Positions 6,001-28,569 of a stretch of DNA of 64,000 bases are shown one piece after another (the stretch's first letter is position 1; each line of letters begins with the position of its first letter). The position numbers were made by a program, and so were the translations under genes. Under the pieces are notes generated by a model. It did no database searches, was not told the DNA's origin, and worked only from the letters and a program-made list of their open reading frames with translations. Origin of the DNA: Candidatus Omnitrophota bacterium. Its GTDB lineage: Bacteria > Omnitrophota > Gorgyraeia > Gygaellales > Profunditerraquicolaceae. Where the stretch lies: positions 73,846 to 137,845 of the forward strand of contig JBAZJY010000002.1 in NCBI GenBank assembly GCA_041651115.1, given 5' to 3'.

Positions 6001-9000
6001 GAAAATCCGCGCGTTTCGGTTTTTCTGCCGCTGGAGGGCAGGGAAGAGTTAGACCATATTTTCGGCGGCAAGACAAAATGGGGAAAAGTCTGGTTTTTCC
6101 CGATCGGCCAGGCTGAACCTAAGACCGATACGCTTAAGCCGGATGGCCTGCTGGCGCTCGGGCCAAAAGAAACCGTTACCAGCTCGCCGCTGAAGGCCGG
6201 CGGGTTCTTTAAAACAGCTGCGTTGGTATCAATGTTGGTGCTCCTGCCGGCATTGGGCCAGCCATTATTCGGCCAGCAAGCTGAACTTTTATCTACCGAT
6301 GCGCAAGGCCGCGCAGAGTTTAAGAACAATGTCTCTCTTACTTTGGCATCTTTAGGGGGAGCCGTTGATATTACGGCAGCTGCCGAGGCTGATCGCCCCC
6401 GTACATACAATTACAACCCTCAAACCGGGATGCTGGAGATTACATATGCTATTCCGGGATATGTCAATGTCAGCAAACCCAACGACGTAGTTACAATAAC
6501 CGCGCGAAAAATTGTTCCGCAGTTTGCCCTTATTACCGATGAATCGGGAAGCCAGGATAAAGAAGCCATGACCGAGCAGGGCCGTCAGTTCGCAAGAGTC
6601 CTGCAGTTTATCCAGAATAGATATCCTGGCATGCGCAATATCCGAATAAGCACGGTTACCGATCCCAACCCTCAAGTTTCCTCTTATTCCGGTGCAGCCG
6701 ATGCGCAAGATTATTTTAATCAGCCGGTATTCCAGAGCGACCCGTTACTGGGAGCCACGCATTTCGTAGAGGCAGTAAGAAATACAATCAAATCTTTTAA
6801 TAATAGCGCTCCGGGGATAATTTTAGCAGCCTCTTCAGATTTTGAACAGGATCCTTTGGCCAGAGGCAGTGATCCTGTAAAACCGGAAGATTTGAGAGCT
6901 CCTTTTTATGAAATGGCCGGTGAATTAGAGGAGCTTAATACCCACCTTTTTATTGCAACGCAAAATGCTGACAGTCAAAAGAACATCCGAATATTGACGG
7001 ATGAGTATCTTAAAAAGTGCGAGGCGGAGGGAAAGGCGCCGTATATTCATTACCAGGTTGTAGGCGCGGAAAATATGAGCGCCGCATTTACCTCTTTTAT
7101 CGCTGAATCTGATTTTCCTGAACAAATTCCTTTACCTACGCAGAATAAGGATATCAAGATAGATTTTCTTTCTTCTGGCCCCGGCGGGCAAGACGCCTCC
7201 GGAGCGGTCAACCCGCAACAGGGGTCCCTTGCCGGTAGTATAAAAATAAACGGAAGCACTTTAGTCCTAAAAGATTTATTTAAGGGATTAGGGGATGTTG
7301 ATTCCGCGCAGGTCGTTTTTTCGTATGAACCCCTGATAGTTCCGCTACCATTAACGCACACCCCGCAGGATATTTACCTGGTGAAAGATTATAGCGGCAG
7401 CGTCAGGGATATAAAGTGGAATGCTTTCCTGAAAGACTTACTTATTAAATTAAAAGAGAGAGGAGACCGGATTATCGGCGGGACATTCTTTGGCCCGGAA
7501 GTCATCTCGGTAGCCGGTTTTGATGGCGTTTTAAGCGCCGTGGAATCGCCCAGGGGTGGGTATACCCATGGCTGGGCGGCCTTAAAAAAGATCTTCCAGC
7601 AAATGGACGATATGCCCGATAATGCGACATTATATTTTATTTCAGACGGCGTATTTAATGACCGGGATTTTACTGACGGGGAGAAAGAACGGGTCAAGGA
7701 AAAATTCCTGCAGAAATTAAAGGATAAAAACATACGCTTTGTCTGGATCGCGCCCGAAAAGGCTTCTCCGGGCGTAACCAAATTTTTGTCAAATGCCGTT
7801 AATAACGGAAAAGCAGCGGACAATCTCCGGGCTTCTTTAAGCCCCTATGCCACGCTGTTGACATTTGCCGTTGCTACCAACCCGGACAGGGGAGTGGTGT
7901 TTTATAAAAACGAAGATACGATTTCCGGCCTGGCCGAAGCCACGGGGCTTTATAGCAGGAAAGTTATCGATGTCCCGGAAAAATTCCCCATAAGGCAGGT
8001 GCAAATATTGTTTCAGGATGAGGGGAAAGAAAAGCGGATAGTAGTAGATATGCAAGACACAGAAGAAAAGCCCGGTTCCAGCTCGCCGATCACCGAGTTA
8101 TCCGGCCAGCTGCCTGAAGAAGAAGCCGCGCAGCTGGAAATACCATTTGTATACCCCCAGAATGCGCCTACCGTCATCTTGCCGCTGAAACTCAACGGCG
8201 CTGATAAAAAAGAATTAATGGAATATAAGGGTACCCTGGAGATTTTAAAAGCGAAATTATCAAATTACCTTGAACATCCCGAATATCTTAAAGACAAAGG
8301 AAAGCTCGAAAGCGTTTTGCCTATCGCCAAAGAGGCAATCAGCGAATTTTTGGGAAAAGTAGCTGCTGCCGATAAGTTAAGGCCGGTTTATGATACCTTT
8401 GCCCGGGCGGATTTTGATGCTCCTATAAACACAGATTTTGGCGACCAGTTTAATGGTTTTGTTGCTTATGTTCAAATGGGGATAAACCAACTTGATTCGC
8501 AAGGATCCATTTCATCGCGTTTAATTTTGAGCCTGATAACTACGCTTACCCAAACCATTGAATTTTTAGAGAACGCAATTTTAATCTTTGAAAAACTCAC
8601 TGGCCCCTCAAAGAGCGAATTTAAAACCAAGCTGTCAAACGGAGGATCGGGAAGCCCTTCCGTCCTCATATTGGATCTCAATGACCTTTTAAGCAGTGTC
8701 GGCTCAGAGATCAGCTCGCCGGTAAAAACAGAAGCTACGAATGATAAGGGCGGTATTGATTTTAGGGCGTTGCCGGTTGTGACGCAGCCGGTTTTAGGGA
8801 CGGTTCTCAGCCAAGGAGAAAAACGTCCCCAAATGGGGACGCTTTTACCTTGGACTGAGAACCGTCCCTCTCTTGACCAGGAATTACAGCAGATTAGGAA
8901 GATGATTGATTCCGGAATTGTTCCCTCAAGCGAGAGAATCAAGGAATATGCGCAGACTTGCGGCAGCCAGGACATAGATAAAATATTATCTTGTATCGCG

Positions 9001-9159
9001 GATATCTTAAGACTGGAAGAAGAGCGGGTTGAGGAAACCGATCCGCAGTTAAGACAGTTGGTCATGGTGCTTGAATCGGATAAGCCGGCAAATGAGATGC
9101 AGCTGGCAGTAGCCGCGATCTCGTTTTCCGCGAAAGATCCGGTTCTGGTGAAACCTTAA
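1..9159 (+). CDS. Giant multidomain protein, 5'-partial (frame open from nt 1; >3,050 aa). It has two GHKL/HATPase_c ATPase modules, an HExxH zincin-like motif, a vWA domain with a DxSGS MIDAS motif, and SSP-punctuated modules with internal signal-peptide-like segments.
   Basis: Frame 1 is open from nt 1 to the TAA at 9157-9159; the ORF track starts it at an in-frame GTG at 94. HATPase_c N/G1/G2 boxes are visible twice (NLIGNAIDAV..DNGGGIS..GGTGRGLALCKE at ~1290-1540; NLITNAVDEA..GTGLGLALIEEIVKEHGG at ~2440-2770). HEAAH lies at 4078-4092, DYSGSV at 7387-7401, and SSP junctions at 1667, 2864, 3506, 4649, 6179, 8078 and 8712. Confidence 0.7.
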   Translation, partial: NEYASELIRELIIPKLTREINTSKKYASLRQVYYSLILAQWFKAKFNSGSGKYENLINRKNLSGLTSQIFWDKQFYFQQYQDSFNKGEYNLKENRSTPFGQTIRTYMSGGLTLGNEISSAIQAQTIASKRSSSPLANKTFNQAAEIDANGNIRIAEGSVSAQEENIAILHALINQGPKAFLSGEKGDENRDRVIGIAEKFDFYVEELLDEEDEEDFFEYVLGLEKLLKLNPRVHQEPSEMFVHLDNLSHNLGHINNLFNIAIISFNKVDEVELRTGQMNMYLAEYQAIRKLLSWDGLNKINPEAVSDLFTDTIRYVVGSRALFKEIGDILNSNRDMIREKEEGLYSLIDGYLERARLVDSECTHNLGILKRLKEEIYEPGKKEPINIGVSVYEAIEPYLHNGHRVKFITDFRDQGMMVQANALRLSYTWTNLIGNAIDAVNKFKRTPEGRGVDGILTVSVRPVHTENTDIMEVSFQDNGGGISKAMSENDRLFLRGESDKQGGTGRGLALCKEAAEFHGGTISVEPRRVSEFDDRPEKTEDPKRGARFVIRLPVVASSPVAISEIAQKDSDKITREDKAAMLNHARQMDFYVQRIEEENDSQNLKAYATALAILEKEGVKPAEGVYAGKQIDFNIVSHDIGHMIIEMTVLLGILELVPVENDPAGYKKRALELWAKIQAWQAILDWEKTLGIAPGILSRMTEEIGSDLDSVGNFYNEVKDYFNRHVDSEIVADYSAAVDLRRGEREIIDFLLSELKNNISDPSRAAAIDEKFIINKLVWSYEKLKSANLNFQLRLRAENLQTYGNPLRVYSIFKNLITNAVDEAAGLATGSKFVKTPSGKFTEVRLTDEQKRTVEENKTIIIANKNIKEGDKDYAEFSIENIAYITPEMNAELYGGRKLFAKGQTGKESGTGLGLALIEEIVKEHGGSVDYYIKDIPGDDTLKKIQFVVKLPAVSSSPVSGDKVILSTAGTTISLSSGDQARIVSEFRRLANQITTEFSEEDFRESMGLIVGTHENGAYRITRLVPITEFEKGSSYDFLLPGKAQVIRIIENELRSGEQILGDYHNHSYERLRSFQKPGPSSEDAMGGGYLNIIGYENKIANNRLNIVLEPELDLDKITMDELANFDPSNSRVILYPYISPNRGLERRIIELDKIYLDALTKEVNSGATSSPMKLGDLKKLALGAMMAFYLSCLSFHNVNAQVNDTPAIDYYFTVSSQLQDSINNLVKKEFYDIVSLSPDQIKQLLTAKDLTEFKSVAESMLEKKGLSLPYYAPEDIADLVSSSKTGDSDIQRLIRIKGGLNYLSQHHPWVFRFVMFNAQRIIFDFTYNKSGGYENERKIYYGVLLDNYAIEEIAAFLAHEAAHSFLELMGMPVGGAAGESVAIYLGDLILKNANIRLGADKFILNLSSEAANRGHWGPWQDAYYEETYNKAGIELRDHLRHLEFITKLPATLLDIIIFGSKDQWEIYPEYRRLGLDALGEILESVESQPVETKEFFGVLFANYFDELWNAGDGLYRELIRAYLLKNTNYIPAAKQRLILDEVGNAQVDASSPVKAAGFLKTTALLSMLFFLPVFVQQSFSQSARAPTNVEMTIYMSRVKDLSEAKDLGSLLKIIKDDKAHALFKMQAMDAVQRMPMVMNKASDLMRALGAIEDIYNDPQTSNLINGNTVSWLEQIMKKYEIIWWGGKDTLFAPIDVYKGTAELIQQIAADHPDFIKPGSLAEFISRQRQPQLLYKPWPHYPVYQNPQFIAGVQKYNADTREYYSISMAVYDLLNLAGVGLSDTTISQATDYIMQQRQAFGQRVFFDKETTAIFIVTEGEESQKDVDLLRGIALDAGVLEENIHIFRGMKDKRKLATLISESTGPLTIATNMEGNEASWRMDPEGNQLSYAEFAKWLEARSILTNVNIILDGCLSTNLTEGMINLLYDPYDPASKAAAIRRGLPTVVSTSDDNHPSYADQQGQSFFYSELSLMPRVPGKPLLGRQILDTEIAGYKRMFVLENPRVSVFLPLEGREELDHIFGGKTKWGKVWFFPIGQAEPKTDTLKPDGLLALGPKETVTSSPLKAGGFFKTAALVSMLVLLPALGQPLFGQQAELLSTDAQGRAEFKNNVSLTLASLGGAVDITAAAEADRPRTYNYNPQTGMLEITYAIPGYVNVSKPNDVVTITARKIVPQFALITDESGSQDKEAMTEQGRQFARVLQFIQNRYPGMRNIRISTVTDPNPQVSSYSGAADAQDYFNQPVFQSDPLLGATHFVEAVRNTIKSFNNSAPGIILAASSDFEQDPLARGSDPVKPEDLRAPFYEMAGELEELNTHLFIATQNADSQKNIRILTDEYLKKCEAEGKAPYIHYQVVGAENMSAAFTSFIAESDFPEQIPLPTQNKDIKIDFLSSGPGGQDASGAVNPQQGSLAGSIKINGSTLVLKDLFKGLGDVDSAQVVFSYEPLIVPLPLTHTPQDIYLVKDYSGSVRDIKWNAFLKDLLIKLKERGDRIIGGTFFGPEVISVAGFDGVLSAVESPRGGYTHGWAALKKIFQQMDDMPDNATLYFISDGVFNDRDFTDGEKERVKEKFLQKLKDKNIRFVWIAPEKASPGVTKFLSNAVNNGKAADNLRASLSPYATLLTFAVATNPDRGVVFYKNEDTISGLAEATGLYSRKVIDVPEKFPIRQVQILFQDEGKEKRIVVDMQDTEEKPGSSSPITELSGQLPEEEAAQLEIPFVYPQNAPTVILPLKLNGADKKELMEYKGTLEILKAKLSNYLEHPEYLKDKGKLESVLPIAKEAISEFLGKVAAADKLRPVYDTFARADFDAPINTDFGDQFNGFVAYVQMGINQLDSQGSISSRLILSLITTLTQTIEFLENAILIFEKLTGPSKSEFKTKLSNGGSGSPSVLILDLNDLLSSVGSEISSPVKTEATNDKGGIDFRALPVVTQPVLGTVLSQGEKRPQMGTLLPWTENRPSLDQELQQIRKMIDSGIVPSSERIKEYAQTCGSQDIDKILSCIADILRLEEERVEETDPQLRQLVMVLESDKPANEMQLAVAAISFSAKDPVLVKP

Positions 9160-9342: not shown

Positions 9343-9954
<612 letters not shown>

Positions 9955-9957
9955 ATT

Positions 9958-10905
9958 ATGACCTGGACAAAAAAAGATCTATTGGGCCTGGAATACCTAA
10001 GCCGCGAAGAACTGGAATTGATCCTGGCAACCGCGGAATCCTTTAAAGAAGTTTCCAGCCGCGAGATCAAAAAAGTCCCTGCCTTGCGCGGAAAGACCGT
10101 AGTGAATTTATTCTATGAGCCGTCTACGCGCACAAGGGTTTCTTTTGAGGTTGCCGCAAAAAGGCTGTCTGCCGACGTAATTAATATTGCCACGGAAACT
10201 TCCAGCGTAAAGAAAGGAGAAACGCTTATTGATACGGGTAAGAACATACAGGCGCTCAAGGCGGATATTATCGTGATGCGCCATAATTATTCCGGAGCAG
10301 CGGCAATGCTGGCGCGCAGCCTTGATATCAGCGTAGTTAATGCCGGAGACGGCTGGCATGAGCATCCTACGCAGGCGCTGCTGGATATTTTTACCCTGAA
10401 GGAAAAACTGGGAAAGATCGCAGGTTTAAACGTAACCATTGTTGGAGATATCGCCCATTCCCGCGTTGCCCGTTCAAACATCTGGGGTTTGACTAAGCTG
10501 GGCGCAAAAGTAACGGTTTGCGCCCCGGCCATGATTATCCCGCCGGCAATTGAGCAAATGGGGGCTTATGTTACCAGTGATATTGATAAAGCGCTTGCCT
10601 CTGCCGACGCAGTGAATGTCTTGCGCATGCAGTTTGAGCGCGATGAACAAAATGCCTTTCCAAAACAGTTGGAATATTTTAAGAATTTCGGGATCACCGT
10701 TGATCGCTTGAAAAAAGCAAAGAAAGACATCATCGTCATGCATCCCGGCCCGATCAATCGCGGCATTGAAATGTCCAGTGAAGTTGCAGACGGCGCCAAT
10801 TCCGTAATTTTAGAGCAGGTGACCAACGGCATTGCCGTGCGCATGGCAGTGCTTTTCTTGGTTGCCCAGGCAAGAGAGAAGGGTAATGCAAAAAATACTG
10901 ATTAA
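9958..10905 (+). CDS. pyrB: Aspartate carbamoyltransferase catalytic subunit.
   Basis: STRTRVSFE and HPTQALLD motifs; 315 aa. Confidence 0.92.
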   Translation: MTWTKKDLLGLEYLSREELELILATAESFKEVSSREIKKVPALRGKTVVNLFYEPSTRTRVSFEVAAKRLSADVINIATETSSVKKGETLIDTGKNIQALKADIIVMRHNYSGAAAMLARSLDISVVNAGDGWHEHPTQALLDIFTLKEKLGKIAGLNVTIVGDIAHSRVARSNIWGLTKLGAKVTVCAPAMIIPPAIEQMGAYVTSDIDKALASADAVNVLRMQFERDEQNAFPKQLEYFKNFGITVDRLKKAKKDIIVMHPGPINRGIEMSSEVADGANSVILEQVTNGIAVRMAVLFLVAQAREKGNAKNTD

Positions 10906-12169
10906 GAACGGCAAGGTTATTGACCCGGCGCAAAATATCAACGGAGAAACCCTGGATATCCTGGTGCAGTCCGGAAAAATAGCCAAGCTCGCTAAAAATA
11001 TTAAGGCAGATGCCGATAAAGTAATTGATGCCTCGGGAAAGATCGTCATGCCTGGTATCGTAGATATGCACGTGCATTTAAGGGAGCCGGGCAGGGAAGA
11101 TAAAGAAACCGTGGCCAGCGCTACAGCCGCGGCATTAAAGGGCGGGGTAACGTCGGTGCTGGCAATGCCGAATACCCAGCCGGCAATGGACACTAAAGAA
11201 AGCCTGATATTATTAAAGAAGATTGTTAGGGCTTCCGGCCTTTGTAATGTTTTTATCTGCGCTGCGATCACCAAGGAAAGGCAGGGCAAAGAATTAACCG
11301 ATATCCCAGGGCTTAATAAGTCAGGCGCGATCGCCATATCAGACGACGGCGCGTCAGTAGATGACGAAAACTTGTTTTTGGCAGCGATGAAAAAGGCAAA
11401 GGCCGCCGGTATCCCGGTGATCTGCCACTCCGAAGATAAAAAACTTTCCGGTAACGGTGTAGTTAACCGGGGGATCATCTCCACTAAACTTGGCTTGCGC
11501 GGAATTTCCAGAGAGTCGGAATATACAAGGGTTGAGCGCGATATTAAACTGGCAGAAAAGGCAAAGGCAACAATCCACATTGCTCATGTCAGCTGCCGGG
11601 AGTCAGTGGAGCTCATCAAGCAGGCGAAAAAAAGAGGGGTCAGGGTAACCGCGGAAACTGCCCCGCATTATTTTTCTTTGGACCAGGACGCGCTAGCTGG
11701 CTACGATACAAATCTTAAAATGAACCCGCCGCTTAGAGAGGCCGCGGATGTGGAGGCAATAAAGCAGGGGTTGAAGAGCGGGGTGATTGATGCGATCGCC
11801 TCTGACCATGCCCCGCATACAGAGAATGAAAAGGACATTGAATTTGACCGCGCTGAATTCGGGGTGATCGGCCTGGAAACCGAACTTGCCGCCGGCATTA
11901 CCGAGCTGGTGCAAAAAGGAGTCCTGGATTGGCCGGGCCTGGTAAAAAAATTCTGCCTTAATCCGGCAAAAATATTAGGTATAGACAGGGGTACTTTACA
12001 AATCGGCAAACCGGCAGATATCATGGTTGTTTCGCCCAAAGATGAATGGATAGTGCAAAAGCATGGACTCGCCTCCAAATCCAAGAACTCCGCGTTCATC
12101 GGCAAAAAACTAACCGGCGTTGCCGAGTATACTGTCTGCAACGGAAATATCGCATATCAAAGGCTGTAA
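10886..12169 (+). CDS. pyrC: Dihydroorotase.
   Basis: DMHVHLREPG and SDHAPH metal-binding motifs. The ATG at 10886 (MQKILIKNGKVIDP) overlaps the pyrB end; the track ORF begins earlier at an alternative start. Confidence 0.88.
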   Translation: MQKILIKNGKVIDPAQNINGETLDILVQSGKIAKLAKNIKADADKVIDASGKIVMPGIVDMHVHLREPGREDKETVASATAAALKGGVTSVLAMPNTQPAMDTKESLILLKKIVRASGLCNVFICAAITKERQGKELTDIPGLNKSGAIAISDDGASVDDENLFLAAMKKAKAAGIPVICHSEDKKLSGNGVVNRGIISTKLGLRGISRESEYTRVERDIKLAEKAKATIHIAHVSCRESVELIKQAKKRGVRVTAETAPHYFSLDQDALAGYDTNLKMNPPLREAADVEAIKQGLKSGVIDAIASDHAPHTENEKDIEFDRAEFGVIGLETELAAGITELVQKGVLDWPGLVKKFCLNPAKILGIDRGTLQIGKPADIMVVSPKDEWIVQKHGLASKSKNSAFIGKKLTGVAEYTVCNGNIAYQRL

Positions 12170-18011: not shown

Positions 18012-18371
18012 ATGACCCAAATAGCTTATATTCTTCTGGGTTTGGCTGCCGGGATCTTCGGCGGAATGTTCGGCATCGGCGGAGGCGCGATCCTCGTTCC
18101 TGCGCTGGTATACGTTTTCGGCCTGACGCAGCATCAGGCGCAAGGGACAACCCTGGCAGTAATGATTCCGCCGATCGGGCTGCTGGCGGCAATGCGTTAT
18201 TATTACGGCGGCAATGTAAAGCTGGGCATGGCAGGGTTTATTTGCGCTGGGTTTTTTATCGGCGGCCTGATCGGCGCCAACTTTGTGCAGGGCATATCTG
18301 CTCCACTGTTGAAAAAGCTATTCGGCACGTTCCTTCTGGTGGTGTCTTTGCATATGGTCATCGGAAAATAA
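18012..18371 (+). CDS. Half-size TSUP (TauE/SafE, DUF81) membrane protein with a single 4-TM repeat.
   Basis: GxGGG motif (FGIGGGAILVPAL); 119 aa, whereas canonical members are about 250 aa. Confidence 0.6.
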   Translation: MTQIAYILLGLAAGIFGGMFGIGGGAILVPALVYVFGLTQHQAQGTTLAVMIPPIGLLAAMRYYYGGNVKLGMAGFICAGFFIGGLIGANFVQGISAPLLKKLFGTFLLVVSLHMVIGK

Positions 18372-19981: not shown

Positions 19982-20590
19982 ATGGCAGAAGAAATCAAAA
20001 ATCTGATTGAGAAGATCCACAGCGAAGGAATACAGGCAGCTGAAGCCAAGGCCGCAGAGATTGAAAATAAGGCAAGAGAAGAAGCAGATGCCATCGTGAG
20101 CCGGGCAAAAGAAGAGGCGGAGGCAATGCTTTCCGCAGCCAAGGAACGGATCTCGCGCATGGAAGAAAAAAGCAAAACCCTGCTTACCCAGGCAGCAAGA
20201 GACCTCCTGCTTTCTTTGCGAAAAGAGATCAATGCTGTTTTGGGCCGCCTGGTCAACGCAGATGTGCGTTCTGCGTTAAACCCGGATGCGCTGCAAAGAA
20301 TAATCCTGGAGATGGTCAAGAATTATCCCGGAGGCCAAGAACAGGAAATTGTAATTTCCTTAAAGAAAGAAGATGCCGAACAGTTACAAAAACATTTCTT
20401 GGGCCGTCTCAAGGAAGAAACAAAGAGAAATATCGTGATCAAGCCTTCGGAAGATATCCTCGGCGGCTTTACTATCAGCTTTGACGCGGGAAAATCCCAA
20501 TTTGATTTTACCGATAAGGCGCTGGCAGAATACATCAGTTTATATCTTAAGCCGAATTTAAGCGGGATACTTAAAGAAGCGACTTCCTAA
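19982..20590 (+). CDS. atpE: V-type ATP synthase subunit E.
   Basis: About 200 aa, highly charged and helical (AEAKAAEIENKAREEAD..), positioned at the operon head. Confidence 0.7.
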   Translation: MAEEIKNLIEKIHSEGIQAAEAKAAEIENKAREEADAIVSRAKEEAEAMLSAAKERISRMEEKSKTLLTQAARDLLLSLRKEINAVLGRLVNADVRSALNPDALQRIILEMVKNYPGGQEQEIVISLKKEDAEQLQKHFLGRLKEETKRNIVIKPSEDILGGFTISFDAGKSQFDFTDKALAEYISLYLKPNLSGILKEATS

Positions 20591-20591
20591 A

Positions 20592-21125
20592 ATGAATTCT
20601 AATTACGTTTATTTGATTTCTCAATTGCCAATGCTGCATTTTAACGCAAAGCCGGCGCTTTCTTTTGAAAAGTTCATGGAGCTTTGCCAACGATTCATCC
20701 CGGAAAAAGACGCGCAGCGTCTAAGCAGCCTGCCGCAGCCGGATAGCTATGCCGGATCCAAGGAACAAGATCCGGTTATCCGGCAGTGGATTGACTTTGA
20801 CCTGTCTTTAAGGAACGACTTGGCAAAGATCCGCGCCAGCCGCAGGCATGTTGACCCTGCGGCCTACTTACGCGCCGGCGGCTTACGTGACGGCAGCGTA
20901 ATGCATGTTGTTAATGCCGCTCAAAGGAACCCTTCTCCTTTGGAAGCGGAGAGATTGCTTGATGAAGCAAGGTGGCATGAACTGGACGAGTTGGAAGCGG
21001 GCCGGTTTTTTGACTTTGGGGCTTTGGTGATCTACGCGTATAAATTGATCATCCTTATCCGCTGGGAAAAGATAGGCAGCGCGGACAAAGAAAAGATATT
21101 TGAAGAAACTCTTGTTAAAAATTAA
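20592..21125 (+). CDS. Hypothetical protein occupying the position of the conserved DUF2764-like gene in Chlamydia/spirochaete-type V-ATPase operons.
   Basis: Sits between atpE and atpA. No recognisable motif. Confidence 0.35.
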   Translation: MNSNYVYLISQLPMLHFNAKPALSFEKFMELCQRFIPEKDAQRLSSLPQPDSYAGSKEQDPVIRQWIDFDLSLRNDLAKIRASRRHVDPAAYLRAGGLRDGSVMHVVNAAQRNPSPLEAERLLDEARWHELDELEAGRFFDFGALVIYAYKLIILIRWEKIGSADKEKIFEETLVKN

Positions 21126-21138
21126 GGCGGGCTAAAAG

Positions 21139-22875
21139 ATGCGAGAAATAAGAAAAGGAAGGATTACGAAGATCAACGCTAACATGGTAAGCGCGCAGTT
21201 CAGCGACTTTGTCATGCAGAATGAAGTCGCTTATATTATCCACGGCCAAGAGCGCTTAAAAGCGGAAATCATCCGCGTGCGCGGCAACTCCGCGGAGATG
21301 CAGGTTTATGAAGCCACTACCGGCTTGAAACTCGGCGAAGAAGTTGAGTTCAGCGGAGAGCTGCTTTCCGTGGAATTGGGGCCGGGGTTACTGGGTCAGA
21401 TCTTTGACGGCCTGCAGAACCCACTTCCTTTGTTAGCGCAAAAATGCGGATTTTTCTTAAAACGCGGTATTTATATGGATCCCCTGGAAGACAAGCAGGA
21501 ATGGGAATTTACCCCGCTGGTTAAGCCGGGAGATAAGCTGCGCGCCGGAGAAAAGATCGGTTTTGTCCCGGAAAAAATATTTAAACATTATATCATGGTG
21601 CCGTTTGCTTTATCCGGCGTATTTGAAGTGGTGAATATTGCCGCGGCAGGCAAATATAATTTAAAGCAGCCGGTCGCGCAAATAAAGGACCAGAATGCCA
21701 AGGTTTTTGATATTTGCCTTTCCCAGGTCTGGCCGGTAAAGATGCCGATCAGGGCCTATGCGGAAAAACTCAGGCCGCAGGAGACTCTGGTTACCAAAAT
21801 GCGCCTGATCGATTCGCTCTTCCCGGTTGCCAAGGGCGGGACCTATTGCATCCCCGGCCCGTTTGGCGCGGGAAAAACCGTGCTGCAGCAATTGACCAGC
21901 CGCCATGCGGAAGTCGATATCGTGATCATTGCCGCATGCGGCGAACGCGCCGGAGAAGTCGTAGAAACTTTGAAGACCTTTCCGGAGATAACCGACCCGC
22001 GCACCGGCAAGCCATTAAGCGACCGCACGGTAATTATCTGTAATACCAGCTCTATGCCTGTGGCTGCCCGCGAATCAAGCGTTTACACTGCCGTAACCAT
22101 TGCCGAATATTACCGCCAGATGGGGCTGAATGTCCTGCTTCTGGCTGATTCCACGTCGCGCTGGGCGCAGGCAATGCGGGAAATGTCCGGCAGGCTGGAA
22201 GAGATCCCCGGCGAAGAAGCATTCCCCGCGTACCTTGAATCGCGCATTGCTTCTTTTTATGAAAGGGCAGGTCTGGTGCGGCTTTATGACGGCACAACCG
22301 GTTCAGTTACTATCGGAGGCACAGTCAGCCCGGCAGGCGGAAACTTTGAAGAACCGGTAACCCAGGCAACGCTAAAGGTCGTGGGCGCTTTTCACGGCCT
22401 TTCCCGGGAACGCTCCGATGCCAGAAGATACCCGGCAATCGACCCTTTGATCAGCTGGAGCAAGTATAAAAGCTTCATTTCCGATGACCGGGTCGCCTCC
22501 GGGCACGGTATCTTGCGTAAGAGCCATAATGTGGCGCAAATGATGAAGGTTATCGGCGAAGAAGGCACTGCCCTGGCCGATTACACGGATTATCTTAAGG
22601 GAGAATTTTTTGATTTTGTCTACCTGCAGCAAAATGCGTTTGACGCGGTGGATGAAGCCTCAGCCAAAGAACGGCAGGCATATATATTTGATTTTATCTA
22701 CGGGATCCTGAGCGCGGAACTTGTTTTTAAAGACAAAGAAGACGCGCTGCGTTTCTTCCAGAAATTACGTCAGCTTTTTAAAGGCTGGAACTCCGCCGGC
22801 TGGGAAAGCAGGGAATTCCATGAGGCGGAGGCGGAAATAAATAGTTTATTGAAAGAGAAAATAAAGGAAAAATAA
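21139..22875 (+). CDS. atpA: V-type ATP synthase catalytic subunit A.
   Basis: Walker [10 protein letters not shown]; 578 aa. Confidence 0.92.
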
Positions 22876-22876
22876 T

Positions 22877-24169
22877 ATGCAAAAAGTTTATACCAATATC
22901 ATCCAGATCGCCGGAGACGTGGTTACGGTTGAAGCGGAGGGGGTAGGGTATTCGGAGATTGCCCAGATCTTTACCCGCAACAGCGTTTCTTTGGCGCAGG
23001 TTATCCGTCTCGACGGGAAAAAGGTATTTTTACAGATCTTTGCCGGCAGCCGCGGAGTTTCCACCGGGGACAAGGTAAGGTTCTTAGGCCATGCCATGCG
23101 CGTTGCCAGCGGCGCAAATCTTCTAGGCCGCGTTTTTAACGGCAGCGGCCTGCCTTTGGATAACGGGCCGCAGCTGACAGACGAGATGATCGAGATCGGC
23201 GGGCCGCCGGTAAACCCGGTAAAAAGGATCATCCCGCGTAAAATGATCCGCACCGGTATCCCGATGATTGATGTTTTTAATTCGCTTGTCGAGTCGCAGA
23301 AACTGCCGATCTTTTCCATTGCCGGCGAGCCGTATAATGAATTGCTGGCGCGCATTGCCGTGCAGGCGGAAATCGACATCATTATCCTCGGCGGCATGGG
23401 CCTGAAATACGACGACTTCCTTTTCTTCCGCGATACGCTTGAAGAGCACGGCAGCCTTTCGCGCTCGATCATGTTCGTGCATACGGCAGCTGACCCGACA
23501 GTAGAGTGCCTGCTGGTGCCGGACATCAGCCTGGCAGTGGCGGAAAATTTTGCGCTGCAGGGGAAAAGGGTGCTTGTGCTTTTGACCGATATGACTAATT
23601 TCTGCGATTCTTTAAAAGAGATCGCCATTACCATGGAGCAGATCCCCTCTAACCGCGGATATCCGGGCGACCTATACAGCCAGCTTGCCAGCCGTTATGA
23701 AAAGGCAGTGGATTTTGACACTGCCGGATCGATCACCATCCTGGCGGCAACTACTATGCCCGGAGACGACGTCACGCATCCTGTCCCGGATAATACCGGC
23801 TACATTACCGAGGGCCAGTTTTATTTAAAGAACGGCGTGATCGAGCCTTTTGGGTCCTTAAGCCGTTTAAAGCAGCAGGTAAACGCTAAAACCCGCGACG
23901 ACCACCGGGTGATCATGGATATGATGATCCAGCTTTTTGCCAGCTACCGCGAAGCGCTGGAAAAACAATCCATGGGTTTCCAGATGAGTGCCTGGGATAA
24001 AAAGCTTCTGCAATACGGAAAGCTTTTTGAAGAAAAAATGATGTCTTTAAAAGTGAATATCCCTCTGGAAAAGGCGCTTGACCTGGGTTGGCAAATCATG
24101 GCAGATTGTTTCCAGCCTGAAGAAACCGGCATCAAAAAATCCATGATCGAGAAATATTGGCCAAAATGA
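22877..24169 (+). CDS. atpB: V-type ATP synthase subunit B.
   Basis: Degenerate P-loop region, A/B-family fold, 430 aa. Confidence 0.9.
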
Positions 24170-25482
24170 AGCCTTTTATTATCTCCTGTCTTGTGGTTTT
24201 ATCGTTTCTACGCATTCCTGCTTTTGCCGGCGAGGAAGATAAGCTTAACAAGGCCTGGCAGCATATCGCTGTAAATCGTCTATTTAGCCAGCAGCTTAGT
24301 TCCGAAGAAGCCATAGTCTGGCACCTTGATTATAATGGTTTTGCCGCGCTCGTTCCCGGCTGCCTGATGATTTTTGATTACGATAATGAAACCCCCGCTC
24401 CGCAGAATGATAAGAAATCCGAAACCGGCATTGTGGAAAGCCTGCTTACGGGAGTGATCAACCCCGAAGAAATCAAGGACCAGCCCGTAATATTTTTCTT
24501 TTCTCATGAGCATCCGGCGGAAAAGCTGATCAAACTGCTTAAATGGAAGGATGCGATCAAGGATGTGCTTTTTGTTTTGCCGGAGGGAATCTATTTAAAA
24601 TATGAGGAGCAAATCAAGGAGCTCAAGCAGGCAGACAGCGCCGATTTAAATAAAAAAGACGTTTTTAGCGTGATTAAACGCGTACTGCCAAACCACACAT
24701 ATGTTGTTAAGGGCAATACTATTTCAGTGCTTGAGCAGCAGGCGCCGCATCCGGGCGTGGAGTTTATCGTAGAGACTGCCAACGGCCTTACCATATATCA
24801 TTCGGGCTCCCTTCTCTGCCGGCATTGCCCGGATGTAGAGAACGAACGCATAGCCCTGGCAGTTTATTCGGACCTGCGCAGCCCCGCCGGAAACATTTTT
24901 CTGGCTGGTAACTGCGCTATCCCGGAATACGACATCGGGATAATCGGCGTAAGCGGGTTTAAGCCGGGGGGTTTTGAGGCAGAGATAGCCGGGCGGATAA
25001 AAGAGAAAAACTATTTATTGGAGAAAGATAAATTCTTTACCGAAAGAAATCCGTATTTTTGGGCTGATCTGGGAAATTTGCTTTGGGTTGAGCATGAAAC
25101 CAGCGCGATCAACGATTATTTCAAAAAAATAAAAGGCAATCCGGACATATTAAAGGACATAAAAAACGCCGTAGTCAGGAGATACGCCGAGTACATGGAT
25201 GACGTAAGACAATATTGCAGCCTGGAGACAACGCCCGATGAATGCGATGAGAAAATAAGCTACCGGAAATACGGAGGGATTTTTTATACCTTTAGTTCTG
25301 ATGTCCCAAGCTTTGCCCGGGGAGAATGCTTTCTTTTCAGCGCCGGCCATAAACCGGCCGGCGGAGAATACTTTTCCGGCTATTGGTCTTCCGAGGGATG
25401 GCCGTTATTCCCGCCAAACAGCATTTTATGGGATATTTTCCAGGAACATGGAATTAAGGATGTAGGCGATAATGAAAATTAA
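24166..25482 (+). CDS. Secreted hypothetical protein inserted within the V-ATPase operon.
   Basis: N-terminal signal peptide [21 protein letters not shown]. No recognised domain. The ATG overlaps the atpB stop (ATGA). Confidence 0.5.
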
Positions 25483-26086
25483 ATTAACTAAAGGCGAGTT
25501 AAAGCGGCAGCGCGATGCGTTAAGGCAATATCAGCGTTATCTGCCTACCTTACAGTTAAAAAAACAACAATTGCAGCTTGAGATCCTGCAGCAGCACAAT
25601 TTGCTGGAGGAAAGAAAACATGCCCTGGCAGGAAAAAAGAAGGCGGCGGCCAGCTGGGCCGGCTTGATCGTCGAGCAGAAGGAGGGCCTGCGTAATTTTA
25701 TTTTTCCGGAACGCGTGGCTACCGGCCAAAAAAATATTGCCGGAGTGGACATCCCGGTTTTTGAGAAACTTGAATTTAAGGCAGCGGATTATGATCTATT
25801 CCTTGAGCCTCTCTGGTTGGACGCGGCAATAGAGGCACTAAGGCAGATCGTCTCGCTGCAGGAAGAAATGAAGGTAATGGAAAAAGGCGTGGATATCTTA
25901 AAGCGTGAGCTACGCATCACCACGCAGCGGGTCAATTTGTTTGAGAAGGTAAAGATCCCCGAAGCGGAAGAGGCGATCAGGCTGATCAAGATCTATATCG
26001 GAGACCAGATGGCTAATGCCGTGGGCCGCTCTAAGATCGCCAAGGCAAAGATAGAAGCGAATGTTTTAGAGGAGGCACTGGTATGA
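25472..26086 (+). CDS. atpD: V-type ATP synthase subunit D.
   Basis: [36 protein letters not shown]-terminus. Confidence 0.85.
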   Translation: MKIKLTKGELKRQRDALRQYQRYLPTLQLKKQQLQLEILQQHNLLEERKHALAGKKKAAASWAGLIVEQKEGLRNFIFPERVATGQKNIAGVDIPVFEKLEFKAADYDLFLEPLWLDAAIEALRQIVSLQEEMKVMEKGVDILKRELRITTQRVNLFEKVKIPEAEEAIRLIKIYIGDQMANAVGRSKIAKAKIEANVLEEALV

Positions 26087-27852
26087 TCGTACCGATGAAA
26101 AAAACCACGGTCATTACCCAGCATAAAGATGCGCAGGAGGCTGTCGGGCAGCTGCGTAAACTCGGGCTGCTGCATGTTGAACACCAAAAGCCGCCGCAAA
26201 GCCAGGATATAAACATCCTGCAGGAAGATGCCGGATTAGTTAATGCCTGCCTTGAAGTTTTTGGCCAGGCTGGCTGCCAGGCAAATAATGTTATTGCTAA
26301 AACAGGGCTCGTTGATTGGAAAATAAAAGCAAGGCACGTTGTTGATTTATGGAAAAGATACGGCCACCTTGGTGATTTTTCAAATACGCTCAAGCACCAG
26401 ATCAATGAATGGCGGAAATGGGGTGATTTTGACCTGCAGAGATTACAGGAACTCCAGCAAAAAGGCATTTACCTTAAATTTTATCAGGTTCCTATCCGTC
26501 AACTAAAAGAATTCCCCCGGGAGGTTGTTATAGAGCAGGTATTTGTTACCGGAGGGCTTGCGCATTGCGTGGCGATTTCCACAAATAAATTTGAAGTGCC
26601 GTTCAAGGAGGTTAGCCTGCCTAAGCTGAGCCTTTCCGGGATGCTTGCCAAGCTTGAGGAAGATGAAAAAACGATGCAGGCGATAAAAAATGAGATCTGT
26701 CTTGCCGTAAGTTATGTCCCGGAGCTATTGGAGGTAAAAAAGAAGCTGGAAAAAGAGATTGAGTTCCAGCAGGCATTGGCAGGCATGGGAGAAAGCAGGG
26801 CAGTCGTTTATTTAACAGGATATATTCCGCGGGAATGCGAAGGCAAGATATTGGCAGAAGCAAAAATAAAAAAGTGGGGCATCTTGATCAGCGACCCGCA
26901 AGAAGATGATAATGTGCCGGTTTTGATCCGCAATCCCCGGTGGGTTTCTATTATCAGCCCAGTTTTCCGCATGTTGGAGATCGTGCCGGGGTATCGGGAA
27001 ATGGACATTAGCCGGTTATTTTTGGTATTCTTCGGTATCTTCTTCGGTATGTTAATCGGAGATTCCGGTTACGGCTTGATCTATGCAGCCGTCACTTTTT
27101 GGGCGCAGAGGAAGTTCGGTAAAAAAGTATCCAATAAAGCGATGTTTTTCCTCTTTTACGTTTTGAGTTTTTGCGCTATCATATGGGGGCTATTGACAGG
27201 AACATTTTTCGGGCAAGCCTGGTTATTGAAAGCCGGATACAGGCCGTTAATACCCGCCTTAAACGACGTAAAAAATATACAGGCATTTTGTTTTTTTCTC
27301 GGTGCACTACATCTTACATTAGCGCACTCATGGCAGGCGGCAATAAAGTTCCCTTCCTTAAAGGCGCTGGCCGACATCGGCTGGGTCTGTATCCTCTGGA
27401 CCGCTTATTTTCTGGCAAATGCGCTTATTTTAGGAGATGCTTTTCCGGGCTTCGGAAAGTGGCTGGTTAGCTGCGGCATCAGCCTCGTAGTTTTATTTAC
27501 CAGCCCGCAAAAAAATCTTTTAAAAACGATCGGCAGCGGGTTGGGGACTCTGGCGCTCAGCCTGATGAATAATTTCACCGACGTGGTTTCTTATGTGCGC
27601 CTTTTTGCCGTAGGCTTGGCAGGCGTAGCGATCGCCGATACTTTTAATTCTATGGCCGGCGGAGTTGTTTCCGCGAACTTTTTTTCGCTGTTATTGGCGG
27701 GGGTGATCATTCTGGCGGGGCATTTGTTAAATCTTTTACTGGGGCCGATGTCTGTTCTGGTGCATGGGGTGCGGCTTAATGTGCTGGAATTCAGCAGCCA
27801 CGCAGGCGTATCGTGGAGCGGGACAGCGTATAAGCCGCTCAAGCAGGATTAA
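26083..27852 (+). CDS. atpI: V-type ATP synthase subunit I (a-subunit; membrane).
   Basis: Soluble N-terminal half followed by a C-terminal multi-TM domain; 589 aa. Confidence 0.8.
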   Translation: MIVPMKKTTVITQHKDAQEAVGQLRKLGLLHVEHQKPPQSQDINILQEDAGLVNACLEVFGQAGCQANNVIAKTGLVDWKIKARHVVDLWKRYGHLGDFSNTLKHQINEWRKWGDFDLQRLQELQQKGIYLKFYQVPIRQLKEFPREVVIEQVFVTGGLAHCVAISTNKFEVPFKEVSLPKLSLSGMLAKLEEDEKTMQAIKNEICLAVSYVPELLEVKKKLEKEIEFQQALAGMGESRAVVYLTGYIPRECEGKILAEAKIKKWGILISDPQEDDNVPVLIRNPRWVSIISPVFRMLEIVPGYREMDISRLFLVFFGIFFGMLIGDSGYGLIYAAVTFWAQRKFGKKVSNKAMFFLFYVLSFCAIIWGLLTGTFFGQAWLLKAGYRPLIPALNDVKNIQAFCFFLGALHLTLAHSWQAAIKFPSLKALADIGWVCILWTAYFLANALILGDAFPGFGKWLVSCGISLVVLFTSPQKNLLKTIGSGLGTLALSLMNNFTDVVSYVRLFAVGLAGVAIADTFNSMAGGVVSANFFSLLLAGVIILAGHLLNLLLGPMSVLVHGVRLNVLEFSSHAGVSWSGTAYKPLKQD

Positions 27853-27879
27853 GTCAATTTTTAAAGAAGGGAGTCTGAT

Positions 27880-28326
27880 ATGTTGGAGCAATTCAAAGAT
27901 TTAGGCGCGATAACGGCTTTGGCTCTTTCTGCGTTCGGGTCAGCCCTTGGCGCCGGCGTTGCGGGGATGAGCGCAATCGGTGCATGGAAGAAAAATTTTT
28001 CCCAGAATAAACCGGCGTCCTTTATGATGGTGGCTTTTGTCGGCGCGCCGCTTACCCAGACGGTTTATGGCATGATCATTATGAATAGGATGGCCGAGAT
28101 CGCCAACAAAGGAACATACCTCTGGAGCGTCGGGATTTTCGCTGGCATTGCCATGGGGCTTTCTGCATACTGGCAGGGTAAATGCGCGGCAGCTGCCTGC
28201 GACGCCATGGGAGAAACAGGTAAGGGGTTTGGAAACTATATTGTTGTCCTGGGTATTATTGAAACCGTCGCGTTGTTCGTGATGGCGTTTACTTTAGGCG
28301 TCCTGGGAAAATTCGCCGGCGCATAA
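27880..28326 (+). CDS. atpK: V-type ATP synthase subunit K (proteolipid).
   Basis: Four predicted TM helices, with a conserved Glu in the last helix (GIIETVALF). Confidence 0.8.
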   Translation: MLEQFKDLGAITALALSAFGSALGAGVAGMSAIGAWKKNFSQNKPASFMMVAFVGAPLTQTVYGMIIMNRMAEIANKGTYLWSVGIFAGIAMGLSAYWQGKCAAAACDAMGETGKGFGNYIVVLGIIETVALFVMAFTLGVLGKFAGA

Positions 28327-28332
28327 AATATC

Positions 28333-28409
28333 GGGCGGTTAGTTCAGCTGGTTAGAACGTCTCTCTTACACAGAGAAGGTCAGGGGTCCGAGTCCTCTAC
28401 CGCCCACCA
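28333..28409 (+). tRNA. tRNA-Val (anticodon TAC), CCA encoded.
   Basis: Acceptor GGGCGGT/ACCGCCC, anticodon loop CTTACAC, T-loop TCCGAGT, 3' ACCA. Confidence 0.85.
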
Positions 28410-28448: not shown

Positions 28449-28464
28449 TAGCACCCTACGAATT

Positions 28465-28540
28465 GGGGTCGTGGTGTAGCCCGGTCTAACACGTCGCCCT
28501 GTCACGGCGAAGATCGCGAGTTCAAATCTCGTCGACCCCG
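28465..28540 (+). tRNA. tRNA-Asp (anticodon GTC).
   Basis: Acceptor GGGGTCG/CGACCCC, anticodon loop CTGTCAC, T-loop TTCAAAT. Confidence 0.88.
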
Positions 28541-28569
28541 TTGAAATTTTCCGACAAGGAAAATTTCAA
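28541..28569 (+). terminator. Perfect 12-bp hairpin (TTGAAATTTTCC-N5-GGAAAATTTCAA) immediately 3' of tRNA-Asp. It may be a processing site or terminator stem.
   Basis: Read directly. No T-run follows. Confidence 0.35.

Follow-up and report, generated by a model that had tools for sequence, protein, structure and literature searches.

What is a gene for a predicted secreted protein doing inside the operon of a rotary ATPase, and which subunits does that operon encode? Both questions are raised by a locus at positions 19982–28326 of a 64,000-nucleotide stretch of DNA from a Candidatus Omnitrophota bacterium (GenBank assembly GCA_041651115.1, contig JBAZJY010000002.1, positions 73,846–137,845), the whole of which is referred to here as the window. 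The list of open reading frames (ORFs) and their translations showed eight plus-strand ORFs at this locus, with almost no intergenic DNA: atpE, a gene in the second slot for a 177-amino-acid (aa) protein referred to here as the DUF2764 protein, atpA, atpB, an ORF at 24166–25482 referred to here as X, atpD, atpI, and atpK. The reading preferred here, to which a probability of roughly 0.7 is assigned, is that of a standard seven-gene V/A-ATPase operon carrying a lineage-specific gene, X, that is most likely a tolerated passenger without a role in the ATPase. The most useful by-product of the analysis is a model-based assignment of the DUF2764 protein to subunit d/C.

Insertion of X between atpB and atpD

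The plus-strand gene X (24166–25482) encodes a 438-aa predicted secreted protein with a degenerate metallo-beta-lactamase (MBL) fold, and is joined to its neighbors at both ends: the stop codon of atpB and the ATG of X overlap as ATGA (24166–24169), and the TAA stop codon of X (25480–25482) lies 11 nucleotides (nt) inside atpD, the ATG of which is at 25472. A preliminary description of this DNA had reported a 441-aa signal-peptide protein between atpB and atpD, overlapping atpB by ATGA. The position, the coordinates, and the overlap are borne out by the sequence, but the length is not; the protein is 438 aa long from the ATG, as is the public protein P0001, with the count of 441 starting from a TTG at 24157.

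Comparison with related operons showed X to be an insertion confined to one lineage. The gap between atpB and atpD was found to be 4–530 nt in all 82 related loci (AtpB 73–89% identical), every one of them lacking X, and a tblastn search with the window proteins detected no X within about 8 kb in these loci. The preliminary description had regarded absence of the inserted gene from all relatives as the mark of a strain-specific insertion and as fatal to its own reading; with X missing from between atpB and atpD in 82 of 82 loci, the insertion is indeed strain- or lineage-specific. A control argues that this absence is not a failure of detection: the gene for a 119-aa protein at the pyrK–pyrD junction was detected in many of the same loci while being missing in L091.

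The boundaries of the insertion could be drawn by comparison with L091/L092, the nearest relative on a large contig, with AtpB 89%, AtpA 87%, and the DUF2764 protein 68% identical to those of the window. (Nearer relatives by the DUF2764 protein, at 80% and 78% identity, lie on 2.4- and 1.4-kb contigs too short to include the B–D junction, the 2.4-kb one ending inside atpA.) L091 has the same synteny from pyrB to pyrF as the window, the 119-aa gene excepted, and just 8 nt, without X, between atpB and atpD. In a blastn comparison, collinearity of the window with L091 ends at 24166 and restarts at 25473. The inserted plus-strand segment, 24167–25472, replaces 27 nt of L091 and is ORF-precise, with no extra non-coding DNA; no repeat, mobile-element gene, or flanking non-coding DNA was found in it in this comparison. 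The C-terminus of the window AtpB is five residues shorter than that of L091, because it now ends at the TGA within the ATGA overlap.

Confinement of the arrangement to a single population would also be expected of an assembly chimera. However, the B-X-D junction was recovered in three assemblies made by different pipelines—on contigs of 579 kb (NCBI/JGI), 487 kb (ENA), and 4.6 kb (Logan)—and consists of codon-precise overlaps rather than arbitrary breakpoints. Since the three assemblies agree, an assembly artefact is rejected, the probability left to it being negligible. The X-less L092 comes from the same ENA sample as the 487-kb contig. The X and DUF2764 proteins of the window are 100% identical to those encoded by a Candidatus Omnitrophota metagenome-assembled genome on the 579-kb contig.

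With respect to composition, X resembles its host. Its mean synonymous log-likelihood is −1.048, compared with −1.095 ± 0.035 for the background, and its GC content at third codon positions (GC3), 0.517, is inside the host range. A recent foreign origin of X was considered and is ruled out by this host-like codon usage and GC3; the host-like composition implies that X is either old in the lineage or derived from a similar genome. The locus is a clear case, from nature, of a foreign ORF placed with codon precision, and with overlaps at both ends, in a stoichiometry-sensitive operon, and shows that 1.3 kb of additional coding sequence can be accommodated at the B–D junction.

The X protein

A Sec signal peptide is predicted at residues 1–21 of X (24166–24228, plus strand), in which a short, basic n-region precedes a hydrophobic core of 12 residues and an A-x-A motif; cleavage is predicted after AFA, so that the mature protein would start with GEED. 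The signal peptide is the sole hydrophobic segment of X, leaving no other membrane anchor, and comparable signal-type N-termini were found in all X homologues. The predicted structure, a check proposed in the preliminary description, was recognized as having the alpha-beta/beta-alpha fold of metallo-beta-lactamases. This MBL-fold domain covers approximately residues 45–250 (24298–24915, plus strand) and contains S113-H114-x-H116-P117, Y211-H212-S-G-S215, and C218/C221. It is followed by a C-terminal domain of approximately residues 270–430 (24973–25455, plus strand), with three long helices and then short strands in the predicted secondary structure. No structural match was obtained for the C-terminal domain, which lies outside the MBL structure alignments and, by alignment with MBL relatives, is specific to the X family. 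Model confidence was lowest at approximately residues 215–270.

Comparison of the X family with relatives having canonical MBL motifs showed extensive losses at the metal center. At motif 2, the canonical HxHxDH is replaced by S113-H114-x-H116-P117 followed by variable residues, with the Asp and the third His gone; at motif 4, the canonical (Y/F)HxGD is replaced by Y-H212-S-G-(S/A); and the canonical PMH of motif 5 has no counterpart. In turn, the X family has a conserved pair of cysteines, C218 and C221, found in none of the canonical relatives. Within the family, H114, H116, and H212 are invariant and C218/C221 nearly so. These motif losses imply that the second metal site is gone, and, as far as the sequence can tell, a mono-metal or non-catalytic binding protein is a likelier description of X than a di-zinc hydrolase.

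The family itself is small. Eleven X homologues (30–100% identity) were found among 5.8 billion clustered proteins, those with a source name being from Omnitrophota, and a profile search of 1.84 billion representatives yielded 18 proteins at E < 1e-30. The tail of this search contained distant matches, over profile positions 40–145 alone, to Pfam Lactamase_B_3/B_2 proteins. A metagenome scan with the family returned four loci, two of them already known. Neither Pfam nor NCBIfam gave a credible match for X, nor did Pfam for any of the 11 family members, and the X-family profile matched nothing among PDB sequences even at E 10. X therefore defines a small family of predicted secreted MBL-fold proteins, apparently restricted to Omnitrophota and lacking the second metal site. 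Among the distant relatives, many (P0057, P0059, and P0063 among them) combine long ankyrin-repeat arrays with a C-terminal Lactamase_B_3 domain.

The conserved residues leave room for an enzyme. X might be an active periplasmic hydrolase with a remodeled metal center (for example, H114/H116/H212 with C218/C221), unrelated to the ATPase and merely expressed from its operon, and the invariance or near invariance of these residues fits such a proposal, as do the relatives with canonical motifs, which are Lactamase_B_3 proteins with signal peptides. But three or four canonical ligands are missing, a cluster of conserved His and Cys residues in space is putative, and the neighboring genes offer no clue to a substrate; an active hydrolase is thus considered unlikely, if a serious candidate.

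A second proposal is that X is a decaying, non-functional passenger, a chance insertion on its way to becoming a pseudogene that has been tolerated because the coupling of atpD was preserved. Such decay might account for the absence, from the window X alone, of approximately 55 residues (alignment columns 261–319) present in 10 of 10 homologues and in distant X-like proteins, and it could also be read into the lost canonical MBL ligands and into the low model confidence around residues 215–270. However, the 438-codon ORF is intact, the copy retains 36 of the 36 columns that are invariant in the family, its codon usage is host-typical, and the loss of MBL ligands is shared by the whole family rather than being peculiar to the window copy. 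Decay is accordingly judged improbable.

Genomic contexts of X homologues

If X served the ATPase, its homologues might be expected to keep that company. They were found in 11 distinct genomic contexts, nine of which are unrelated to the ATPase: among the contexts are miaA–hflX, positions downstream of uppP in two lineages, a position adjoining greA, and several in toxin-antitoxin, transposase, or response-regulator regions. The two that adjoin a V-ATPase operon are that of the window, where X is inside the operon, and that of L004, where it lies 1.1 kb downstream of atpK, and no conserved co-occurrence across the relatives was found (0/82). No X neighbor is conserved, and no neighbor of any X homologue was found to be related to the genes of the window. 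A candidate module consisting of a 97-aa ORF and X, in L004 and L006, was dropped, as the two 97-aa ORFs are unrelated.

A functional link would mean that X is a periplasmic partner or accessory of the V-ATPase in this lineage, being produced in concert with the pump, exported, and active at the periplasmic face of I/K or on a substrate of the ion cycle. The overlaps with both atpB and atpD would suit a partner of this kind, as would the family member just downstream of atpK in L004, the retention of every family-invariant residue, and the host-like codon usage. Such a role is nevertheless rated improbable. X is present in 0/82 related operons, and 9/11 of its contexts are unrelated to the ATPase; the 3.7 kb upstream of the L006 homologue, which is comparable to that of L004 in length and similarity, is free of ATPase genes; apart from its signal peptide, X is without a membrane anchor; and we know of no bacterial V-ATPase with a periplasmic subunit. 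More speculatively still, X might have been recruited as a periplasmic pseudo-enzyme add-on at the outer face of I/K, with DUF2764-type enzymes in general being minimal seven-subunit motors that have a half-size d/C and need neither F nor G; this combined proposal is a long shot.

Interruptions of the operon by other genes were encountered in two other Omnitrophota. In L059, a 95-aa ORF unrelated to X lies between atpB and atpD (9404–9691), and a 419-aa protein, also unrelated to X and with a signal-peptide- or lipoprotein-like N-terminus, is encoded between atpD and atpI (10506–11765). In L055 (9342–17125), atpB is followed by ORFs of 212 and 270 aa, toxin-antitoxin-like by eye, and then by a 2089-aa ORF; the remaining 8 kb of that locus gave no match to atpD, atpI, or atpK, and the operon is apparently split or truncated. 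In the light of these interruptions, the simplest reading is of an operon tolerant of insertions, with X as a passenger.

The DUF2764 protein as a predicted counterpart of subunit d/C

The second gene of the operon (20592–21125, plus strand) encodes the 177-aa DUF2764 protein, which is a member of the DUF2764 family by its match to PF10962 (E 4.9e-12; 46.5 bits against a cutoff of 24.1), in agreement with the preliminary placement of a 177-aa protein in the DUF2764 slot. The match is limited to residues 116–172 (57 aa), corresponding to profile positions 205–262 of 271, and the protein is thus a short form; in nearly all related loci, the slot-two protein is 160–195 aa long. An AlphaFold2 model based on 22 homologues (predicted local distance difference test (pLDDT) score, 86; predicted template-modeling (pTM) score, 0.82) is all-helical, and structure comparison showed that it shares this all-helical fold with subunit d of V-ATPases and subunit C of A-ATPases. 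On the strength of this model, the DUF2764 protein is a predicted half-size structural homologue of subunit d/C, without the full-length three-domain architecture. PF10962 was its only Pfam match, with none to PF01992, and a profile built from 32 orthologues matched nothing among PDB sequences even at E 10.

The operon had been described as lacking C, F, and G. The absence of separate F and G genes from the operon stands, but that of C does not, the DUF2764 protein being the predicted structural homologue of d/C: the structural match and the gene position are independent lines of evidence pointing to the same subunit, so that "lacking C" would be wrong in substance. In the public sources covered here, DUF2764 proteins are named just "DUF2764 family" or "hypothetical." In the operon of Chlamydia, the DUF2764 gene is presumably CT309. 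A 2025 screen for secreted effectors still had Chlamydia CT309 among its candidates and scored it "not secreted" (PMC12671076). The structural match to d/C gives DUF2764 a concrete, testable role, and suggests that the "reduced" V-ATPases of the DUF2764 type are less reduced than their annotation implies.

Operon type and distribution

The remaining subunits were assigned by family models, all ORFs being found where the preliminary description had placed the E, DUF2764-like, A, B, D, I, K operon and matching the expected families in Pfam/NCBIfam. All are on the plus strand. The atpE gene (19982–20590) encodes the 202-aa peripheral-stalk subunit E (PF01991, E 2.2e-6; NF002424, E 2.6e-42), which at 144.7 bits is below the NF002424 cutoff of 241, yet matches over its full length. 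The 578-aa catalytic subunit A is encoded by atpA (21139–22875; PF00006, PF02874, and, for the non-homologous barrel-sandwich insert, PF16886 at E 9e-23; NF003220, 749 bits against 470), and the 430-aa non-catalytic subunit B by atpB (22877–24169; NF002555, 745 bits against 431). The central-stalk subunit D, of 204 aa, is encoded by atpD (25472–26086; PF01813, E 4.7e-37; NF002565, 215.7 bits against 189). The 589-aa membrane stator subunit I/a, encoded by atpI (26083–27852), matches NF004429 over its full length at 447.8 bits (E 7e-134), below the cutoff of 799, and PF01496 weakly, and the 148-aa double-hairpin proteolipid is encoded by atpK (27880–28326; PF00137; NF005174, 185.6 bits against 127). 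B, D, and K are thus above, and E and I below, the cutoffs of the best-matching NCBIfam V-type equivalog models. The closest solved structure to AtpB in a search of PDB sequences was the B subunit of Enterococcus hirae, at 294 bits, and no solved structure of this divergent ATPase clade was found in the PDB.

The genes are separated by gaps of 1 nt (atpE and the DUF2764 gene), 13 nt (the DUF2764 gene and atpA), 1 nt (atpA and atpB), and 27 nt (atpI and atpK), with atpD and atpI overlapping by 4 nt. No separate F or G gene was found in the operon, where gaps do not exceed 27 nt and the stretch from pyrF to the downstream tRNA genes contains no additional ORF; no reading frame in that stretch qualifies as a gene for F, G, or a full-length C. 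The suggestion that C, F, and G might be found immediately outside the window is not applicable, the operon being situated mid-window, between pyrD/pyrF on one side and tRNA-Val, tRNA-Asp, and a predicted glycosyltransferase gene on the other.

An AtpB scan of one genome per species gave 80 loci with AtpB 73–87% identical to that of the window, belonging to Omnitrophota, Lentisphaerae, Victivallales, Kiritimatiellae, and some mislabeled bins. By tblastn with the window proteins, the order E-DUF2764-A-B-D-I-K was found in 81 of the 81 loci having at least four of the genes; two apparent exceptions proved to be atpA cross-hits on contigs starting inside atpB. The window has the same order apart from the insertion of X, and pyrF is directly upstream of atpE in most Omnitrophota relatives. 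The operon is thus the standard, syntenic (pyrF-linked) form in Omnitrophota, Lentisphaerae, Victivallales, and Kiritimatiellae, and not an oddity borrowed from Chlamydiae. Gene content, order, and family models place it with the divergent V/A-ATPases of the Chlamydia/spirochaete/Bacteroides type. The same order is, we presume, also that of Chlamydia trachomatis CT310–CT304 and of the V-ATPase operon of Borrelia burgdorferi.

A divergent V-ATPase clade comprising Chlamydia, Borrelia, Treponema, and Bacteroides has been described (PMC2359735), and in the operon of Bacteroides fragilis, DUF2764 is reported to occupy the second position and the subunits to be fewer than in other V-ATPases of bacteria (bioRxiv 10.1101/2023.05.11.540287). 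The preliminary comparison of gene order and subunit set with the reduced operons of Chlamydiae and Spirochaetes is therefore supported both by the family matches and by this published clade (PMC2359735; bioRxiv 10.1101/2023.05.11.540287).

Four of the Omnitrophota-type operons (L020, L040, L051, and L064; AtpB 78–83%) had been deposited in metagenome-assembled genomes labeled Methanobacteriota, Methanomicrobiales, or Methanoregula, which suggests either binning contamination or physical association. Candidatus Velamenicoccus archaeovorus has been described as preying on archaea. In the complete genome of its strain LiM (L044), a gap of about 390 nt separates atpD from atpI (10013–10406), larger than in most relatives.

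Coupling ion

The AtpK sequence contains the motifs P57-x-T59-Q60-x-x-Y63, Q99-G-K, and E128-T129. These P-x-T-Q-x-x-Y, Q-G-K, and E-T positions presumably correspond to T64, Q65, Y68, Q110, and E139 of NtpK from E. hirae. A phmmer search of AtpK against the PDB gave weak matches alone, to Thermus subunit K. In NtpK, T64, Q65, Q110, and E139 are Na+ ligands, with Y68 in a supporting role, and the full set predicts Na+ translocation (PMC2359735). T59, Q60, Y63, Q99, and E128-T129 are kept in 67 of the 67 relatives covering the region (among L011–L092), and this conservation suggests that Na+-coupled V-ATPases may occur across Omnitrophota and related Planctomycetes-Verrucomicrobia-Chlamydiae (PVC) lineages.

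Flanking genes

Upstream of the operon lie pyrK, the gene for the 119-aa protein, pyrD, and pyrF, with atpE directly after pyrF. The 119-aa gene (18012–18371), between pyrK and pyrD, encodes a polytopic membrane protein that is TSUP/TauE-like by eye, and is patchy in its distribution, being missing in L091 but occupying this junction in many other Omnitrophota. Downstream of atpK are tRNA-Val(TAC) at 28333–28409, beginning 6 nt past the atpK stop codon, tRNA-Asp(GTC) at 28464–28541, and then a predicted glycosyltransferase gene, called from reading its translation; the two tRNAs may be co-transcribed with the operon. In L091, atpK is followed by different protein-coding genes (DUF5981, NifU). 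Near the left end of the window, a plus-strand ORF of at least 3021 aa occupies positions 94–9159. Giant ORFs have been reported to be common in Omnitrophota (PMC10066038).

Proposed working of the locus

The products of atpA and atpB would form the A3B3 catalytic head, and D together with the half-size, d/C-like DUF2764 protein would form a central rotor coupling the head to the K ring. E would build the peripheral stalk or stalks, and I would be the membrane stator, with K carrying the set of residues that predicts Na+ coupling. In the lineage of the window, ORF-sized DNA with X would have landed exactly between the last codon of atpB and the start of atpD. No promoter-like or terminator-like site was found on the plus strand within X, and no clear Shine-Dalgarno sequence for X was found; from these absences we infer that X shares the transcript of the operon and that its translation starts by termination-reinitiation where atpB and X overlap (ATGA). 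Translation of atpD would then be coupled to X, in the tail of which an AAGGA Shine-Dalgarno-like element lies within the coding sequence, 9–13 nt upstream of the atpD ATG. The X protein itself would be exported to the periplasm by Sec.

Several points weigh against this account. As to X, its overlap with both neighbors and its host-like codon usage are not those of a fresh, unintegrated insertion, and it may be maintained by selection; furthermore, its co-expression with the operon is read from sequence features. The X homologue of L004 lies 1.1 kb downstream of the atpK of that genome's own V-ATPase operon and, since the window was chosen for its insertion, is the only neighborhood that counts as independent. 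For 10 contexts, the chance of at least one such neighbor is estimated at approximately 6%, with the operon and 2 kb to either side taken as a target of about 12 kb and the genome taken to be about 2 Mb in size (that of Candidatus Velamenicoccus archaeovorus is 1.97 Mb), and the L004 neighborhood is accordingly a marginal hint of an association between X and the ATPase. As to the motor, the DUF2764 protein spans approximately half of d/C and has no sequence link to PF01992 or to the PDB, and a stator built of E without G is a putative arrangement that this operon may or may not use. The preferred reading, a standard operon with X as a tolerated passenger, changes nothing for rotary ATPases unless X interacts with the pump.

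Comparison with known systems

Subunit d of the rat brain V-ATPase (6vq6, chain d) and subunit C of the Thermus thermophilus enzyme (1r5z) are three-domain proteins of 320–350 aa, compared with 177 aa for the DUF2764 protein of the window, to which they show just 11% identity. Among MBL-fold proteins, the Lactamase_B_3/UlaG-like branch (PF13483; UlaG, 2wyl; TM1162, 3x2x; Igni18, 6hrg) is the closest known to X. Unlike this branch, X has lost the HxHxDH Asp and His, the Asp of motif 4 (replaced by Ser/Ala), and the His of motif 5, and has gained a pair of conserved cysteines and, at its C-terminal end, a helical domain of about 170 residues. Were X to have been recruited as a periplasmic add-on, the luminal accessory proteins of eukaryotic V-ATPases would provide a loose analogy.

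AtpK is likewise comparable to NtpK, the ring subunit of E. hirae (2bl2), both being double-hairpin proteolipids with motifs that match by inspection. The Na+ V-ATPase operon of E. hirae, unlike that of the window, also encodes C, F, G, and further subunits. The nearest known system is the Chlamydia/spirochaete/Bacteroides-type operon, which has the same subunits in the same order—E, DUF2764, A, B, D, I, and K—and likewise no separate F or G gene. The window departs from this type in three respects: its DUF2764 protein is a short form of which the C-terminal third alone matches the 271-position profile, its E and I subunits score under the equivalog cutoffs, and the X gene splits B from D.

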